NCBI GenBank assembly: GCA_964291285.2
Contig: OZ219786.1
Span: 544,001 to 608,000, forward strand
Length of the DNA: 64,000 bases
Direction of reading: 5' to 3'
Source of the DNA: Alphaproteobacteria bacterium
GTDB taxonomy: Bacteria > Pseudomonadota > Alphaproteobacteria > Bin95
Part shown: piece after piece, positions 38,401 to 55,968 of the stretch
Layout: each line of letters begins with the position of its first letter
How positions within the stretch are numbered: the stretch's first letter is position 1
The notes under the pieces: model-generated
What the model was told of the DNA's origin: nothing
Databases searched by the model: none
Seen by the model: the letters and a program-made list of their open reading frames with translations, nothing else
Position numbers and translations under genes: made by a program

Positions 38401-41400
38401 TTGCGTTTCCAGCGTCACCACACCGGCGGATGCGCCTCAGCCTATGACGGCGTTGCGTTCGTTCGCAGAAACAGCGAAATCCGTAACCCCGACGGCACTC
38501 CCGTTTTCATTGCCGACGACATCATGGCGCCGCAGGAATGGTCGCAGGTGGCCGTCGATGTGCTCGCCCAGAAATATTTCAGGAAGGCCGGCGTCCCGGA
38601 CCGGACCGAACCGGTTGCCGAGGAAGGCGTGCCGGAGTGGCTCCGACGCCGCCGACCGACCGAAGGCGCGACGCTCGGCGGGGAGCGCGACGCGCGCCAG
38701 GTCTTCCACCGGCTCGCCGGCGCCTGGACCTACTGGGGCTGGAAGGGCGGCTATTTCTCCGCCGAGGAGGACGCGCGCGCCTATTACGACGAAATGCGCG
38801 CCATGCTGGCCCGGCAGATGGCGGCGCCGAACTCGCCGCAATGGTTCAACACCGGCCTCAACTGGGCCTACGGCATAGACGGGCCGGCGCAGGGCCACTA
38901 TTTCGTCGATCCCGCCACGGGCGAATGCCGCGCGTCGGAGTCGGCCTATGAGCGCCCGCAGCCCCATGCCTGCTTCATCCAGTCCGTGACCGACGACCTC
39001 GTCAACGAAGGCGGCATCATGGACCTCTGGCAGCGCGAGGCGCGGCTGTTCAAATACGGCTCCGGCACCGGCACCAACTTCTCCAGGCTGCGCGGCGAAG
39101 GCGAGCCGCTCTCCGGCGGCGGGCGGTCCTCCGGGCTGATGAGCTTCCTGAAGATCGGCGACCGGGCGGCGGGCGCCATCAAGTCCGGCGGCACCACGAG
39201 GCGGGCCGCCAAGATGGTCACGCTCGACATCGACCACCCGGACATCGAGGACTATATCGACTGGAAGGTAGTGGAGGAGCAGAAGGTCGCAGCCCTGGTG
39301 GCCGGCTCGAAGGCCTGCGAGAAGCATCTGGGCCGCGTCATCACCGCCTGCATGCCGGACGGCGAGATCGGCGAGGCGGACGAGGCGGACCGCTTCGACC
39401 CGAAGCGCAACAGGGCGCTGCGCAAGGCGGTGGCGGGCGCGCGCGAGGCCGCGATCCCGGAAAGCTATATCCAGCGCGTGATCCAGTTCGCCCGCCAGGG
39501 GTTCACGGCCATCGACTTCCGCATCTACGACACCGACTGGGACAGCGAGGCCTACCGGACCGTCGCCGGCCAGAATTCCAACAACTCCGTGCGCCTGACC
39601 GACGAGTTCCTCCGGACCGTCGAGACCGGCGGCGACTGGGCGCTCACGCGGCGCACGGACGGCGCGGTTGCGAAGACCGTTTCCGCGCGGGCCCTCATGG
39701 ACAAGGTGGCCCATGCCGCCTGGGCCTCGGCGGACCCCGGCGTCCAGTTCGACACGACCGTCAACGACTGGCACACCTGCCCGGCGGAAGGACGGATCGA
39801 AGCCTCGAACCCGTGCTCGGAATACATGTTCCTGGACGACACGGCCTGCAACCTGGCATCGATCAACCTGATGGCGTTCCGGCAGGAAGACGGCGAATTC
39901 GACATCGAGGGCTTCCGGCACACCGTTCGGCTGTGGACGGTCGCGCTCGAAATCTCGGAATCGATGGCGCAGTTCCCTTCGCGGCGCATCGCCGACCGCT
40001 CCTACCGCTACCGCCCGCTGGGCTTGGGCTTCGCCAATGTCGGCGGGCTGCTGATGGCATCCGGCATCGCATATGACAGCGGCGAGGGCCGCGCGGCGGC
40101 CGGGGCCATTACCGCGCTGATGACCGGCACGGCCTACGCCACATCGGCGGAAATCGCGAGCGAGCTCGGGCCCTTCGACGGCTACGCCGCGAATGCCGGA
40201 TCCATGCTGCGGGTCATCCGCAACCACCGCCGCGCGGCGCATGGCTGCACGGAGGGCTATGAGGGGCTGAACACGAAGCCGCAGCCGCTAGATGCCAAGG
40301 CGTGCCCCTTCGACGGCCTCGCCGGGGCCGCCGGCGCCGCCTGGGACGACGCGCTCGCCTCCGGCGAAAGGCACGGCTACCGCAATGCCCAGGCCACGGT
40401 CATCGCGCCCACCGGCACGATCGGCCTGGTGATGGACTGCGACACCACCGGCATCGAGCCGGATTTCGCGCTGGTGAAGTTCAAGAAGCTCGCGGGCGGC
40501 GGCTATTTCAAGATCATCAACAGCCTGGTGCCGGCGGCGCTCGCCGCGCTCGGCTACGACTCCGCGCGGATCGAGGCCATTGAACGCCATGCGGTCGGCC
40601 GGGGCACGCTGAAGGACTCGCCCGCCATCGGCCATGACGAGCTGGCCGCGAAGGGCTTCACGCCGGAGATGATCGATGCGCTGGAGGCCGCGCTGCCGGG
40701 CGCCTTCGACATCCGCTTCGTCTTCAACCGCTGGACGCTCGGCGAGGAGGCCTGCCGCGAGGCGCTGGGCCTGACGGACGAGCAGCTGGAGAGCGGCGAC
40801 CTGCTGGACGCGCTTGGCTTCTCGAAAGAGGAGATCGAGGCCGCCAACCTCCATTGCGGCGGCGCGATGACCGTCGAGGGCGCACCGGACCTCCGCGAAG
40901 AGCATCTGGCGGTGTTCGACTGCGCCAATCCCTGCGGCCGGAACGGCGTCCGCCACCTCTCGACCGAGAGCCACATCCGGATGCTGGGCGCGGTGCAGCC
41001 TTTCATCTCAGGCGCGATCTCCAAGACCGTGAACATGGCGAACGGCGCGACCGTGCAGGACTGCATCGAGGCCTACCGGCTCTCCTGGAGCCTCGGCCTC
41101 AAGGCAAACGCGCTCTACCGCGACGGATCCAAACTCTCGCAGCCGCTGGCGGCGACGGCGCTCGGCGGAGACCTTGCCGAGGAGGTCGCGGAGGAGCCGG
41201 CCGCGGCCCGCGCAGCCGTGCTGGCGGAGCGCATCGTCGAGCGCCGCCTGATCGAGCGCAAGCGCCTGCCGGACCGCCGCAAGGGCTACACGCAGAAGGC
41301 CACGGTCGGGAACCACAAGGTCTATCTGCGCACCGGCGAATATGACGACGGCAAGCTCGGCGAGATCTTCATCGACATGCACAAGGAGGGCGCGGCCTTC

Positions 41401-41982
41401 CGCAGCCTGATGAACAATTTCGCCATCGGCATCTCCATCGGCCTGCAATACGGCGTGCCGCTGGAGGAATATGTCGAGGCCTTCACCTTCACGCGCTTCG
41501 AGCCTTCGGGCCTTGTGGAGGGCAATGACGCGATCAAGATGTCCACCTCGATCCTGGACTATCTCTTCCGCGAGCTAGCGATCTCCTATCTCGGGCGCGG
41601 CGACCTCAGCCACGTCATGCCGGACGATGTCCGGCCGGACAGCCTGGGCGGCGGCGAGAACGAGGCGGCGCTGGCGGAACGCGAGATGGGCCAGCCGATC
41701 CCGACGGCGGCCAGCCGCGGCTTCGTGCGCGACAACCTCTATGTGCTCTCAGGCGGCCGCACCGAAACCGTGTCTCTCGCACAGGAGGCCGTGGAGGCGT
41801 CGTTCGTCGAAGCGCCCATGCCGGCGGCGGTGGCAGGCGGCTCACACGACGCGGCGGTCCGCCATGCGCGGATGCTCGGCTACGAGGGCGACGCCTGCGG
41901 CAGCTGCGGCAATTTCACCATGGTCCGCAACGGCACCTGCATGAAGTGCATGACCTGCGGCCATACGGACGGATGCAGCTGA
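38401..41982 (+). CDS. nrdJ: Vitamin B12-dependent (class II) ribonucleotide reductase
   Basis: [42 protein letters not shown]-terminal CxxC...CxxC; TTG start after GAGGGGAG. Confidence 0.96.
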
Positions 41983-41999
41983 GCGGACGGGAGGCGCGG

Positions 42000-42290
42000 C
42001 TACCGCTTCGAGAACACCGGCTTGCTGCTTGTCGACGAAGGCCTTTGCGGCTTCGAGAGGGTCTTCGGTCAGGCCGGAGCGGGAATGTTGCTGGCTTCCA
42101 TGTCGAGCGTCTCGGAGAGCGAGGCGGTGACGGCGCCGTTCAGGGTCTGCTTCATGTAGGCGAGCGTGATGCGCGGGCCGGCGGCGAGGCTTTCCGCCAG
42201 GCTCGCCGTCTCCGCCTCCAGCGCCTCTTCCGCGCCCAAGCACGCAGCCGTCATGTAGAGCTCCTTTGCCTTTGCCGGGCCGCTTTTGCA
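42000..42290 (-). pseudogene. Enoyl-CoA hydratase/isomerase C-terminal remnant
   Basis: GPAKAKELYMT...LAAGP...AYMKQTLN...LDMEA, then in shifted frames TEDPLEAAKAFVDK and KPVFSKR*; N-terminal part missing. Confidence 0.7.
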
Positions 42291-42399
42291 GGGGTGACCG
42301 ATGAGGTGCGGAGTCCGACGTAGCTGAGCCGGCGAGTGCGCCGGTTATGGACCGGAACTCAATATACGAATCCGGAAGCCGGCCGGTGCTGCAGCAAAT

Positions 42400-43017
42400 C
42401 GTTCCTGAAATTTATGTAATAATTCTCTATTCGTGGCTTGCATTTTCAGAAATTGTGATATGATGGGTTCGAGGTAAGCGGCATCCGGAGCCGCTTCCCG
42501 CCCGCGCCGGCCCGGTGCGGAACGACCCCGATTCAGCCGACAGGCGAAGTGCGTCCTGCGCCTGCCCCGCGCACGCGCAATCAGGCGCGCGAACCGCGCC
42601 GGCGCCGACACCCGCCCGCGCCGGCACAGGCGCCCGCGCAGGATACGCGCGAATAGGGGTCGCTCCGATGCCGGGACGGTATGGCCATCGAACCGAAGCG
42701 GAATGTAAGGAGCCGTGCATGACCTTTCCCGACCCGACCGTCGCCCTCACTACCCGCCGGGAAGCCTTCTGCCGCCACTACACAGCCTCGACCGGCTCCA
42801 GAGGACCGGCTTCTTCAACCCGCCCGGAGACACGGAGTTCGCCCCCGACCATGACAAAACATGACATTCCATGACACATCGGATGGGGGCGCTTTCCGAA
42901 GCACAGCCGTCACCCCGGCCCTGAGCCGGGGGCCAGCCCTGACTCTCGCGGCAGCCTCGGCGGTTCCACCCTCTTTCCACCGGCCGCGGCATCATCGCGA
43001 GCCATGGATGGACCCCG
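42400..43017 (+). repeat. Repeated cassette, copy 1 (promoter, leader, TerS-like ORF, CATGACA repeats, REP)
   Basis: Aligns by eye along its length with the reverse complement of 55232-55968. Confidence 0.9.
42719..42874 (+). pseudogene. Internally deleted terminase-small-subunit-like ORF
   Basis: MTFPDPTVALTTRREAFCRHYTAS after AAGGAG; 114 bp shorter than the copy at 55380-55649, including a 97-bp deletion that removes most of the HTH. Confidence 0.65.
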
Positions 43018-43255
43018 ATGGTGTGGACGCCTCCTTCCGCCGGCATCGCAATGTGCCAGGGCAGCGGTGTCGAAACAGTGCTACGGGAAGGAGGCATCCA
43101 ACAAAGGAGGTTAGCCTCATCGGGACCGGCCTGTCGAAGAACAGCTTTCAGATGCACGGCGCGTATGCGAACGGTTCGGCGGCGTTCCGTCGCAAGCTGA
43201 CGCGGGGGAAGGTTCTGGCGTTTCTGTCGTCTCAGCCTCGTTGTACGATGGCGGG
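43018..43255 (+). mobile_element. IS110-family (IS1111-like) left end and truncated transposase
   Basis: Inverted repeat TGGACGCCTCCTTCC (43024) / GGAAGGAGGCATCCA (43086); from 43101 TKEVSLIGTGLSKNSFQMHG...RRKLTRGKVLAFLSSQPRCTMA, matching the IS110 N-terminus with start codon and first catalytic Asp apparently lost. Confidence 0.75.
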
Positions 43256-43274
43256 CCCTCCAACGACCGTCCGT

Positions 43275-43925
43275 TCATCCGGAACGGCTCGCGCCCCGGA
43301 ACAGCGGATGGCCGAGGGCGGCTTCCAGATCGGCCAGCGCCTGCGCCTCGGTCTCGACCTTGATGGTCGCCATGCCCATGGCGCGGGCCGGCTTGAGATT
43401 GATGCCGAGATCGTCGAGGAAGACGCAGGCCGCCGGCTCCACGCCAAGGCGCTCGCAGGCGAGGCGGTAGAAGGCCGGCTCCGGCTTGCGAACCCCCACC
43501 TCGCGCGACTCGACCACCGCGTCGAACAGCGCCATCGCGTCTGCGATCTCGCGGGCCCCGGGGCCGTCCTCGCCCGGCGCGCGCATATTGTTGGTGAGGC
43601 AGGCGGTCCGGTAGCGGGCCGCGACCGCGCGCAGCGCCGCCACCATGCGCGGCCGCACCGGGCCCTGGATGAGGTCGAGGATTTCGCCGGCGTCCAGCCT
43701 GTAGCCGAGCGCCGCCGCCTCGGCCTCGAAGCGCCGGCGGAATTCGGCCCGGTCGATGTCGCTGCGTTCGAACAGCGCCCAGGCATTGCTGTCCGGGTTG
43801 CGGCTGTTGATACGCCGGACCGCGCCTTCAGGCAGGCCGTTGGCGCGCTCGTAGCGGGCGAAGGCGTCGAAGGGGCTTTCCGTCAGCACGCCGCCGAAAT
43901 CCCAGAGCACCGCCTCGACCGTCAC
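43275..43925 (-). CDS. HAD-IA family hydrolase
   Basis: WDFGGVL, LTNN, RKPEP, FLDDLGINLKPARAMGM. Confidence 0.9.
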   Translation of the reverse strand: MTVEAVLWDFGGVLTESPFDAFARYERANGLPEGAVRRINSRNPDSNAWALFERSDIDRAEFRRRFEAEAAALGYRLDAGEILDLIQGPVRPRMVAALRAVAARYRTACLTNNMRAPGEDGPGAREIADAMALFDAVVESREVGVRKPEPAFYRLACERLGVEPAACVFLDDLGINLKPARAMGMATIKVETEAQALADLEAALGHPLFRGASRSG

Positions 43926-45031
43926 AACGCGCCTCCCTGGCAGCGGGCCGGGCTCAAAGCGGACTCTTCGAGGCCGAGGTCCCGGATTTCCTGCGGCAGA
44001 CCTTTGCCCGCCGCCAGCGCCGCCACCGTCATCCCCATCGCCGGCGCGGTCTGGATGCCGTAGCCGCCTTGACCCGCGCACCAGAAGAAGCCGGGAACAT
44101 CGGCATCGAAACCCGCCACCAGCGTCTTGTCGGCGACGAAGCTGCGCAAGCCCGCCCAGCGCCGCTCGATGCGGCGAATTTGGAAGACCGTCGCGCGCTC
44201 GATCCGGTCCACCGCCATCGCCACGTCGATCTCCTCCGGCTGCGCATCGCAGGGTGGCGAAGGCGTCTCGTCGGCGAGCGAACCCAGCACGCGGCCCGAT
44301 TCCGGCTTGAAGTAGAATTGCTCATCGACATCGACCGCCATCGGCCACGCGCCGGTTTCCGCCTCGAAGGTGAAGGCGGTGCGCCGCTTGGGCACGAGGC
44401 CGATGGGGGCCGCGCCGGCCAGCGCCGCCACCTCGTCGGCCCAGGCGCCGGCGGCGTTCACCACGATGCGCGCCTCGACCTCTTCCCCGCCCCGGAGCGC
44501 CACCCGCCAGCCGGCCGGTGTTTGCACAAGCGCTTCCACCTCCGCATTGCGCCGGAGCGGCACGCCGCTGAGGAAGCCCCGGTGCAGGGCGTGAATGTCG
44601 ATGTCCGAAGCCTCCGGCTCGAAGACGCCCCCGGCCACGTAGCCTGGCCGGAGCGCGGGTATCAGCCGGCAGACCTCGCCGCTGTCCAGCATCCGGATCT
44701 CCGGGACGAACCGCCGGCCGTCGCGGAAGGCGCCTTCCAGCGAGTCCGACTGGTCGGCGCGCCCGAACAGCACCAGGCCGCGGGGCGTCAGCAGCGGCAC
44801 GTCCGAGAACCCCTCGGGGGGCTTGTCGAAGAACGGCTCCGAGGCGACCGTCAACGCCCGGATCGCAGCATTGCCGTAGGCCTGCGTGTAGAGCGCCGCC
44901 GACCGGCCGGTGGTGTGGTAGCCCGGCTGGTCCTCGCGCTCCAGCAGCAGCACGTCGAAACGCCGGGCGAGGAAATGCGCGGCGGACGCCCCGGCCATGC
45001 CGGCGCCGATGACGACGATGTCAGGCATCAT
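43922..45031 (-). CDS. FAD-dependent D-amino-acid dehydrogenase-like oxidoreductase (DAO family)
   Basis: IGAGMAG, HTTGRSAA, VNAAGAWAD, WAGLRSF, GQGGYGIQ. Confidence 0.9.
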   Translation of the reverse strand: MMPDIVVIGAGMAGASAAHFLARRFDVLLLEREDQPGYHTTGRSAALYTQAYGNAAIRALTVASEPFFDKPPEGFSDVPLLTPRGLVLFGRADQSDSLEGAFRDGRRFVPEIRMLDSGEVCRLIPALRPGYVAGGVFEPEASDIDIHALHRGFLSGVPLRRNAEVEALVQTPAGWRVALRGGEEVEARIVVNAAGAWADEVAALAGAAPIGLVPKRRTAFTFEAETGAWPMAVDVDEQFYFKPESGRVLGSLADETPSPPCDAQPEEIDVAMAVDRIERATVFQIRRIERRWAGLRSFVADKTLVAGFDADVPGFFWCAGQGGYGIQTAPAMGMTVAALAAGKGLPQEIRDLGLEESALSPARCQGGAL

Positions 45032-55231: not shown

Positions 55232-55968
55232 GGTCGCCCCGGCCCTGAGCCCATCCATGGCCCGCCATGCTGCCGCGGCCGGTGGAAAGAGGGTGGAACC
55301 GCCGAGGCTGCCGCGAGAGTCAGGGCCGGGGTGACGGCTGTGCTTCGGAAAGCGCCCCCTTCCGATGTGTCATGGAATGTCATGGAATGTCATGTTTTGC
55401 ATGGTCGGGGGCGAACTCCGTGTCTCCGGGCCCGTCCGGCCGCCGGGGCGCATTGAAGGGTCCGGCCCTCTGGAGCCAGTCGAGGCTGTCCCGGCGGCGC
55501 TGCTCGATGTTCTCCACGATCCAGGGCCGCTCCAGGAGCGCGCACCCTGTCTGCCTTGCGGCGTGTGCGGCATTGCCGGAGGCGGTGTAGTGGCAGCAGA
55601 AGGCCTCCTGGCGGGTGGAGAGGGCGACGGTCGGGTCGAGAAAGGGCATGGCGGCTCCTTCATTCCGTTTCGGTTCGACGGCCATGCCGCCCTGGCATCG
55701 GAGCGACCCTTATTCGCGCGTATCCTGCGCGGGCGCCTGTGCCGGCGCGGGCGGGTGTCGGCGCCGGCGCGGTTCGCGCGCCTGATTGCCCGCGCGCGAG
55801 GCAGGCGCAGGACGCACCTCACCTGTCGGCTGAATCGGGGTCGTTCCGCACCGGGCCGGCGCGGGCGGGAAGCGGCTCCGGATGCCTCTTCCCTCGCACC
55901 CATTATACCACTATTTTCTCAGATGCAAGCCCTGAACAGAGAAATATTGCTTAATTTTTAGGAACAAT
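55232..55968 (-). repeat. Repeated cassette, copy 2 (inverted relative to copy 1)
   Basis: Reverse complement matches 42400-43017; adjacent extra hairpin CCCCCGC-GAAG-GCGGGGG at ~55216-55233. Confidence 0.9.
55380..55649 (-). CDS. Solo terminase-small-subunit-like HTH protein, 89 aa, possibly degenerate
   Basis: LSTRQEAFCCHYTASGNAAHAARQTG..LLERPWIVENI resembles the TerS N-terminal HTH pattern (LT.KQ..F...Y....NAT.AA..AG...LL..P.I); RBS AAGGAG. Confidence 0.6.
   Translation of the reverse strand: MPFLDPTVALSTRQEAFCCHYTASGNAAHAARQTGCALLERPWIVENIEQRRRDSLDWLQRAGPFNAPRRPDGPGDTEFAPDHAKHDIP

Follow-up and report, generated by a model that had tools for sequence, protein, structure and literature searches.

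Two loci of a 64,000-nucleotide stretch from an Alphaproteobacteria genome (C2:544001-608000; "the window" from here on) carry a compact unit made of an AT-rich promoter-like block, a long leader, the start of an open reading frame (ORF) that resembles the small subunit of phage terminase (TerS), and phased CATGACA repeats. The reading that we favor, with a rough probability of 45% and hence somewhat short of even odds, is that these loci belong to an undescribed family of autonomous and non-autonomous elements arranged around a TerS-derived DNA-binding protein that would recognize its own phased repeats. In the genus under study, the unit seems to have gained a long, structured, promoter-driven RNA that is seemingly under selection on its own. 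An earlier note on this DNA, made from the sequence of the window, had pointed to both loci, and both exist as described, with their parts in a common order: copy A lies at ~42400-43010 on the forward strand, and copy B at ~55968-55250 on the reverse strand. The assembly that contains the window (G000) comprises 6.13 Mb in 5 contigs, with 68% G+C and a completeness of 100%. It was compared with 16 other species of the same genus, with 20 genomes from the two other genera of the family, and with 300 class-wide genomes.

Family members were counted by a profile search with the promoter and leader across G000, which yielded 111 matches, 84 of them near full length. The description of the unit as present twice is therefore true of the window only, while the view of a dispersed, mostly non-autonomous element, as opposed to a local duplication, gains from the genome-wide count. 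Units measure 0.4-1.4 kb, have one part order in common and are found on all 5 contigs, at about one per 60 kb. Ten of them are full-length units of 1.3-1.4 kb that are 82-97% identical to one another and whose similarity ends at unrelated flanks; the full-length master copy that the earlier note had suggested looking for does exist. The two window copies and some 90 others are internal-deletion derivatives of the full-length unit, and even in divergent short subfamilies, remnants of the ORF start and the PANDL block are recognizable. G000 shows a flat GC skew, and the orientation of units relative to local skew (47 co-oriented, 51 anti-oriented) is like that of genes.

The block at the 5' end of the unit contains 64% A+T, against 32% in the genome. 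A consensus promoter scan found no promoter-like site in copies A and B, where the candidate -35 hexamer, TTGCAT, matches TTGACA at 3 of 6 positions and is followed by a spacer of 15 nt; an extended -10 TG is present in both. Across the family, sigma-70 hexamers with at least 9 of 12 matching positions (spacers of 15-18 nt allowed) were found in 39 of the 84 units versus 9 of 2000 random genome segments, and the extended -10 TG in 48 of the 84.

At the opposite end, the ORF runs into an array of two to four CATGACA repeats, which includes its final codons and its stop. The genome contains 115 phased CATGAC arrays; for 93 of the 111 leader matches, an array follows in the same orientation at a distance of at most 2 kb. 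The phasing is strict: 275 pairs of neighboring CATGAC motifs lie exactly 10 nt apart, versus at most 8 at 9, 11 or 12 nt. Runs of two, three and four repeats number 64, 92 and 10, respectively, and with three repeats at a 10-nt period, every frame receives an ATGA, in which start and stop codons overlap. Neighboring motifs exactly 60 nt apart are also seen (40 pairs genome-wide). The arrays are not followed by an intrinsic terminator: only 9 of 73 units have a T-run within 80 nt past the array, and a terminator scan found no site in either window copy. In five units of G000 (C2:1256600+, C2:731300+, C2:1109900-, C2:1315720+ and C1:691030-), a stretch of more than 800 nt of identical sequence begins ~40-50 nt past the last CATGACA.

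The protein encoded by the full-length units is under purifying selection. In 8 of the 10 units it has exactly 329 amino acids (aa), the other two products having 336 and 331 aa and a different C-terminus. The median ratio of nonsynonymous to synonymous change (dN/dS) over 45 pairs is 0.31, with 0.22 in the first 115 codons and 0.35 in the remainder. The contrast drawn by the earlier note between eroded ORFs and well-kept non-coding parts thus holds for the window, as seen in the alignment of copies A and B and in orthologous copies in 6 species, but does not extend to the family, which retains 8 intact 329-aa copies with a dN/dS of ~0.3.

By sequence profiles and a structural model, the N-terminus of the protein is a predicted helix-turn-helix DNA-binding domain of the SPP1/SF6 small-terminase type, followed by long helices or a helical core. 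Pfam Terminase_2 (PF03592) matches residues 11-70 with 42.6 bits (cut-off 26.1), through profile positions 2-61 of 141 only. Small terminase families of PHROGs, including PHROG 51, match as well, and a profile of 31 relatives retrieves from the PDB the DNA-binding domains of SF6/SPP1 G1P (4zc3, 2cmp and 3zqp) with E values of ~1e-5. An AlphaFold2 model has a mean predicted local distance difference test (pLDDT) of 62 and exceeds 80 only at residues 10-110, which form three short and two long helices; predicted helices 52-90 and 93-106 lie in that part, with pLDDT >80. The top Foldseek matches of the model are all small terminases (3zqq, 4zc3 with a target-based template modelling score, TMt, of 0.85, PaP3 and NV1), none of them at E ≤ 0.001. 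The 4zc3 alignment has 39% identity over 56 columns and a root-mean-square deviation of 1.5, and the match to the full-length TerS 3zqq has a probability of 0.98 but an E value of 7e-3 and a query-based score (TMq) of 0.17. The 89-aa ORF of copy B scores 15.3 bits on its own against Terminase_2, below the Pfam cut-off of 26.1; the resemblance to TerS proposed from it is supported through its full-length relatives, which pass the cut-off and give the PHROG, PDB-profile and Foldseek matches.

Beyond the DNA-binding domain, residues 112-300 are well conserved within the family; a search of 1.84 billion proteins gave only 35 representative clusters that match them, each with the same layout or fragmentary. 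A variable, acidic tail, in some members with a run of lysines, forms the C-terminus. Throughout the family, the first CATGACA repeat codes for its final residues, PDHD(K/R)T. Searches with NCBIfam and PADLOC gave no match to the protein, and Terminase_2 was the only Pfam match. All 12 Terminase_2 matches in G000 belong to this family. The known partner of TerS, the large terminase subunit (TerL), was searched for genome-wide with three families (PF03354, PF03237 and PF04466); there was no match in the 100%-complete G000, while control genomes were positive, and no TerL partner for the protein was thus found in its own genome. In a set of 50,697 phage records, 25 match the protein, each over at most 36% of its length and all with less than 60% identity, and none contains a full-length relative. 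The sole match to an HK97-type capsid in G000 (C2:88158-88493) is weak, with 28.9 bits, and lies in a 467-aa open frame; it may represent an encapsulin, a remnant or a component of a gene transfer agent.

The leader was examined on 57 copies from several species, for which RNAalifold predicts 25 pairs. In the 5' hairpin, P1, two pairs show compensatory changes, with 6 and 11 double changes among the 57 sequences. Helices other than P1 are GC palindromes that hardly vary, and a long-range UGCGY/RCGCG pairing shows one-sided changes only, all of them compatible with pairing. Over 23 pairs, G.U variants amount to ~111 cells versus 17 for A.C, the cells not being independent as the copies are related; in the core hairpin, there are 39 C>T but 14 G>A changes. 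Such strand asymmetry fits a constraint at the RNA level, with the proviso that related copies do not provide independent events. A 26-nt core is nearly invariant: with at most 2 mismatches, it was found 83 times in G000, and its reversed control gave 0 matches throughout. GGA-rich tracts precede the Shine-Dalgarno sequence (SD) in many copies. When Rfam was searched, the whole window matched only a tRNA, and the best score in the leader region at E ≤ 10 was that of dauA, with 20.4 bits where 45 are required. In this genus, selection seems to maintain the promoter and RNA portion independently, and this portion probably also works as a small RNA.

Within the genus, 12 of the 16 other species have several copies of the 329-aa gene, and the RNA core has 3-115 matches in 13 of the 16; three species, G001, G003 and G013, have no copy at all. 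Outside the genus, the core gave no match in 20 genomes from the family's two other genera or in the 300 class-wide genomes. The units as a whole were seen in a single group of sponge-associated bacteria only. Similarity is higher among copies of one genome than between those of different genomes. Relatives at 44-58% identity, from other lineages and sponge-associated metagenome-assembled genomes (MAGs), keep the promoter, the ORF and phased repeats of the (C)ATGACA/CTGACA type, but their leader is only ~40 nt long. Because these distant relatives have the gene and the repeats but a short leader, gene and repeats would be older than the long leader. Public records with relatives are MAGs of uncultured Alphaproteobacteria, two of which are titled as Rhodospirillaceae bins, one from Spongia; where the gene is named, the annotation is "terminase small subunit". 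Neighboring host genes are matched, at ~86-95% identity, by contigs from a metagenome and a metatranscriptome of sponges. A second multicopy TerS-like gene was seen in G033, a genome from another family of the class (loci L130, L132 and L133). It encodes ~290 aa, is present in at least 5 copies that are ~95% alike, shares ~32% identity over the first 110 residues, and has a promoter-like block of its own (CTTGTA...TATAAG); no CATGACA arrays were seen there.

The best indirect support for a partnership between protein and repeats, and for a separate role of the RNA, is provided by a comparison of gene and repeat content across the genus. G008, a single-contig genome of 100% completeness, has no match to the TerS-like protein and 45 RNA cores, and is the sole such complete genome. 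It contains only 9 exact triple arrays, versus 33-171 in the 12 genomes with the gene, and among 30 of its loci inspected, 4 have three exact repeats while 18 have one or none. These figures suggest that the repeats decay where the protein is missing and that the RNA core is kept nonetheless.

Signs of gain and loss were found when loci were compared across species. At C1:517992 of G000, a unit occupies the same site in G012, G015, G007, G010, G002 and G014, with conserved promoter, P1, core and arrays and a variable middle, while G009 and G004 have a 17-nt intergenic gap instead. A second locus is likewise empty in G009 and G004, and filled in G006, G002, G016 and G000. The third locus harbors an intact small gene in G009; in G000, the unit and ~400 nt more stand in place of the 5' part of this gene, a pattern that fits insertion with deletion. 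At the fourth, each of the five relatives compared has a unit, that of G009 being from an unlike subfamily. The unit is thus absent from at least one compared relative at 3 of the 4 loci tested. At L069/L059, the intergenic regions were too divergent for boundaries to be read. In the closest full-length pairs, similarity stops exactly at the last CATGACA(C), and the promoter halves can be unlike, which points to mosaicism by recombination.

A tempting candidate for a clean insertion, locus L090 of G011, with 26-bp inverted ends and a ~22-bp direct repeat, had to be discarded because the ends belong to a separate insertion sequence (IS) of 3.1 kb. That IS is present in G000 at C3:12088-15226 and C3:1268788-1271925, with inverted ends GGTAGTGTCTCACTTTGAC, and a 1.68-kb derivative of it, with a ~22-bp direct repeat, encloses the full-length unit in G011. 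A link with integrases was also dropped. The tail TGGAGTGGGCCCC past the last repeat is identical to the opening codons of an integrase gene, P4-like and truncated, in one relative (L108); however, none of the ~50 integrase pairs of G000 adjoins an array within 1.5 kb downstream. The pairs themselves are tandem P4-like tyrosine integrase genes spread over the genome (108 tblastn segments), for instance at C1:52410-54550 and C2:209003-211313.

Several observations weigh against the favored reading. Searches with Pfam, NCBIfam and PADLOC found no catalytic domain in the protein, which would therefore be unable to move DNA alone by any known chemistry. The units have neither terminal inverted repeats nor a clear target duplication, and their alignment ends are scattered; empty-site comparisons gave only a 6-nt GC-rich overlap in one case, and otherwise none. 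The left end is not sharp either, as inserted blocks include 30-66 nt of unlike, GC-rich DNA upstream of TTGTTC. Part of the pattern may be explained by recombination among copies, not by transposition, and the unit at L090 may simply have hitch-hiked on the 3.1-kb IS. Two genomes complicate the argument from gene and repeat content. In G009, 112 triple arrays and 114 cores coexist with gene fragments only, which either weakens the argument drawn from G008 or reflects a fragmented assembly of 280 contigs. In G008 itself, most copies share one lineage-specific C>T change that keeps a G.U pair, and its short units may have multiplied or been homogenized without the protein. Lastly, RNA data came from one sponge run and one coral run, in the form of contigs from which starts, ends and strand are not readable, and the depth of the unit in RNA library X22, ~10x that of its flanks, is no higher than in DNA runs (12-25x).

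If the units are indeed a family of elements around a TerS-derived protein, a mechanism can be sketched. The full-length unit would be a self-contained expression module in which the promoter block drives a leader of ~200-250 nt, made of a stabilizing 5' hairpin and a GC-rich core, followed by SD and ATG, the 329-aa protein and the CATGACA repeats. The protein would bind the phased repeats, one per helical turn, beside its own gene, by analogy with a small terminase on its packaging (pac) site. The resulting complex might then mark the 3' end of the unit for an agent that copies or moves it, which could be a nuclease or recombinase from the host or from a phage, or recombination among copies. 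Copies that lose the ORF would persist as non-autonomous units. A bolder version, which we regard as unlikely, is that the family represents a new class of mobile element in which a TerS-derived sole protein, its own 5' RNA and the repeats recruit a host or phage enzyme, and whose short, RNA-only derivatives have been adopted by the host as ~100 small-RNA genes.

Among the alternatives, one overlaps in part with an element family: the loci may be domesticated multicopy small-RNA genes, the selected product being a promoter-driven structured RNA with a regulatory or sponge function, and the TerS-like gene and the repeats ancestral baggage of its former vehicle. We consider this doubtful. The near invariance of the 26-nt core, which G000 has 83 times and 13 of the 16 other species 3-115 times each, is what one would expect of RNA genes, and the same can be said of the excess of G.U over A.C in predicted stems, of the covariation in P1, of the GGA-rich tracts ahead of the SD in many copies, and of the orthologous copies in 6 species with conserved promoter, P1 and core. 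The retention of 45 cores in G008, which lacks the protein gene and has decaying arrays, points in the same direction. However, the depth in RNA libraries shows no excess over copy number, and neither an intrinsic terminator (T-runs near 9 of 73 arrays, no scanned site in the window copies) nor, beyond P1, a structure that rests on much other than invariant GC palindromes was found. The RNA is not essential, since three species of the genus live without any copy, and distant relatives have the gene and the repeats without the long RNA.

The earlier note had speculated that the unit might decoy or redirect phage packaging. In its explicit form, the TerS-like protein bound to CATGACA repeats, acting as pac mimics, would recruit the TerL of a phage or of a gene transfer agent (GTA), and host DNA near ~100 sites would be packaged in place of phage DNA; defense, gene transfer, or both could ensue. 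The predicted N-terminal domain is a true TerS-type DNA-binding domain with a helical core, and the phased repeats beside or within the gene recall the pac sites of SPP1 and P22, which lie in terS genes. A distribution over all 5 contigs at one unit per ~60 kb would also suit such a role, and, as no resident TerL gene was found, any packaging partner would need to come from outside. Several facts speak against this proposal, which we deem improbable. Known TerS proteins contact TerL through their C-terminal region, and the C-terminal region of this family is unrelated to its phage counterpart. No PADLOC defense model matches, and the phage records lack a full-length relative, their 25 matches being confined to a third or so of the protein (≤36%). 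Moreover, packaging does not account for how units reach new loci, and it leaves the retention of promoter and RNA in short, gene-less units unexplained.

Another alternative is that the unit is a mobile promoter and start-codon donor, kept for driving the downstream gene and giving it an ATG. The block is promoter-like, and three phased repeats offer ATGA in all frames, a state reached by the 102 of 166 runs that have at least three repeats. Genes next to the units were predicted with a crude caller based on GC3, whose calls cover 76% of the genome; for 17 of 73 units, it placed the start of the following ORF on an ATG of the repeats. Such a caller, however, would be expected to produce these 17 cases: it opens an ORF at the first start codon that follows a stop, and every frame has stops within the array. 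Only 40 of 73 units share the strand of the gene downstream, the remaining 33 being opposite to it (34 versus 31 within 300 nt), and, for want of a strand bias, promoter donation to downstream genes was rejected as a general rule. In addition, both window copies face convergent or broken genes, and full-length units encode a protein of their own. Altogether, we consider this alternative very unlikely. The upstream neighbor, for its part, shows a mild same-strand excess (45 versus 28; 37 versus 18 within 300 nt). An ordinary prophage remnant or local duplication, in spite of "terminase small subunit" being the only public annotation, can be practically dismissed given 111 dispersed copies, full copies with unrelated flanks, 12 Terminase_2 matches all within the family, no TerL found, and a gene with several copies in 12 of the 16 further species of the genus.

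A comparison with known systems helps to place the element family that we favor. Like the G1P small terminase of SPP1/SF6, the protein has a predicted N-terminal helix-turn-helix DNA-binding domain followed by long helices, and short phased repeats at its gene that are reminiscent of a pac site. Unlike a small terminase, it has no TerL gene that was found adjoining or elsewhere in the genome searched, occurs in 10-12 copies per genome with unrelated flanks, and carries a family-specific C-terminal part of ~200 aa with an acidic, variable tail. The population structure resembles that of IS and the miniature inverted-repeat transposable elements (MITEs) derived from them: few protein-coding full copies stand among many internal deletions that keep both ends, and presence or absence differs between species. 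The differences are a lack of any known transposase domain, of terminal inverted repeats and of a clear target duplication; what is retained is ~300 nt of the 5' end and not a short terminus, and the left boundary is not sharp.

A parallel in layout is the IS110 family, whose elements have a 5' bridge RNA and encode a recombinase with DEDD/RuvC-like and Tnp domains. Both have a unit of ~1.3 kb in which a promoter-driven structured RNA of ~200 nt lies 5' of an ORF of ~330 aa, and no inverted ends; in the 329-aa protein, by contrast, Pfam detects neither a DEDD/RuvC-like nor a Tnp domain. Loops of the RNA showed no complementarity to the unit ends beyond matches of 5-7 nt, which may be due to chance. 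A unit of 1.3-1.4 kb with one ORF and no integrase near its arrays also differs from phage satellites, be they phage-inducible chromosomal islands (PICI), P4-like satellites or PLE. Finally, REPIN/RAYT populations and promoter-bearing repeats such as Correia elements and "mobile promoters" (PMC8049555, PMC3575422) are long-lived intragenomic populations of short intergenic repeats, some promoter-bearing and some vertically inherited, and in this they are similar. The units described here are much longer, are not palindromic doublets, carry a structured RNA with SD and ATG, derive from a different kind of protein-coding unit, and showed no bias to driving downstream genes. Membership in an Rfam family, a known IS, an integrase-bearing satellite or REPIN was rejected in every case. 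The view of the earlier note that the element is a candidate undescribed one agrees with our searches of Rfam, NCBIfam and PADLOC, which gave no match to a described RNA, IS or defense family, and a literature search limited to open-access papers and bioRxiv preprints turned up no account of a multicopy solo TerS-like gene or of this repeat.

The two window copies can be aligned over ~700 nt, with an almost identical leader, and have the same order of parts: AT-rich block, TTGCAT and -10, leader of ~248 nt, AAGGAG and ATG, start of a TerS-like ORF, CATGACA repeats and a REP-like unit (REP, repetitive extragenic palindromic). In copy A (forward strand), the AT-rich block and promoter-like region, read from the sequence, span 42400-42464, a position within the unit that is conserved across the 84 near full-length members. 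The block includes CGTTC (42400-42404) and AATAATTC, and is followed by TTGCAT (42438-42443), the 15-nt spacer and TG-n-TATGAT (42456-42464, with TG at 42456-42457 and the -10 hexamer at 42459-42464). The predicted leader RNA covers 42471-42718, with a putative transcription start site placed from the -10 hexamer; it comprises hairpin P1, covarying in the family, at ~42473-42498, the 26-nt core GCAATCAGGCGCGCGAACCGCGCCGG at 42577-42602 and the SD AAGGAG at 42707-42712. The ORF remnant, of 51 aa, extends from the ATG at 42719 to 42874. It bears internal deletions (relative to copy B, segments of 97, 18 and 9 nt are missing), and its TGA stop at 42872-42874 lies within the third of three CATGACA repeats with exact 10-nt spacing (42850-42876), which set the 3' limit of the conserved unit.

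In copy B (reverse strand), the AT-rich block and promoter-like region occupy 55902-55967, with TTGTTC at 55967-55962, TTGCAT at 55928-55923, a 15-nt spacer and TGgTATAAT at 55910-55902 (-10 at 55907-55902). The predicted leader RNA, 55650-55895, contains the 26-nt core at 55789-55764 and the SD AAGGAG at ~55660-55655. The TerS-like ORF (P0001, 89 aa, internally deleted) spans 55380-55649, from an ATG at 55649 to a TGA stop at 55382-55380 that again falls within a CATGACA. The repeats, at 55368-55403, consist of a degenerate one (CATGCAAAA) followed by three exact CATGACA with 10-nt spacing.

A REP-like doublet lies beside copy A (42899-43010, forward strand) and a REP-like unit beside copy B (55250-55345, reverse strand). 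Both belong to a separate repeat family and lie outside the conserved unit. The REP-like unit, of ~130 nt and of the GTCACCCCGGCC...GGCCGGGGTGAC type, occurs alone in more than 25 places, is also found inside units, and forms a five-copy tandem array at C4:55549-57315. As an independent repeat, it gives no backing to the idea that the element spreads with REPs.

The surroundings of copy A deserve a separate mention. The copy sits at a break in gene order, its flanks being on different contigs in G016 (C1 and C5) and ~1 Mb apart on C3 in G007; other relatives, too, place the flanks (41300-44200 of the window) on separate contigs or at distant coordinates. Directly 3' of the copy, a stretch at 43006-43262 (forward strand) is multicopy in relatives, with at least 12 places in G003, and a truncated frame from 43116, in whose 49 aa Pfam detects nothing, is presumably similar to the N-terminus of an IS110-family transposase. 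On the other side, 42069-42254 (reverse strand) encodes a 61-aa fragment similar to the C-terminus of enoyl-CoA hydratase (ECH_1, E 0.037, below cut-off), and a 230-nt piece of this region also borders a full-length unit on both sides in G015.

Should the element family prove real, a DNA-recognition protein of phage packaging would be the signature gene of a self-spreading chromosomal unit without a recognizable transposase. This would amount to a new way for bacterial DNA to multiply within genomes, and to a new role for the small-terminase fold. Whether or not that reading holds, the folded RNA, lying under a promoter-like block, conserved at orthologous sites and numbering 45-115 copies per genome in most species of the genus, would be a very large family of bacterial small RNAs. 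There are practical consequences as well: the label "terminase small subunit" would mislead predictions of prophages and GTAs, and units that break assemblies and sit at rearrangement points matter for reading the genomes of these hosts, which are symbionts not yet culturable.

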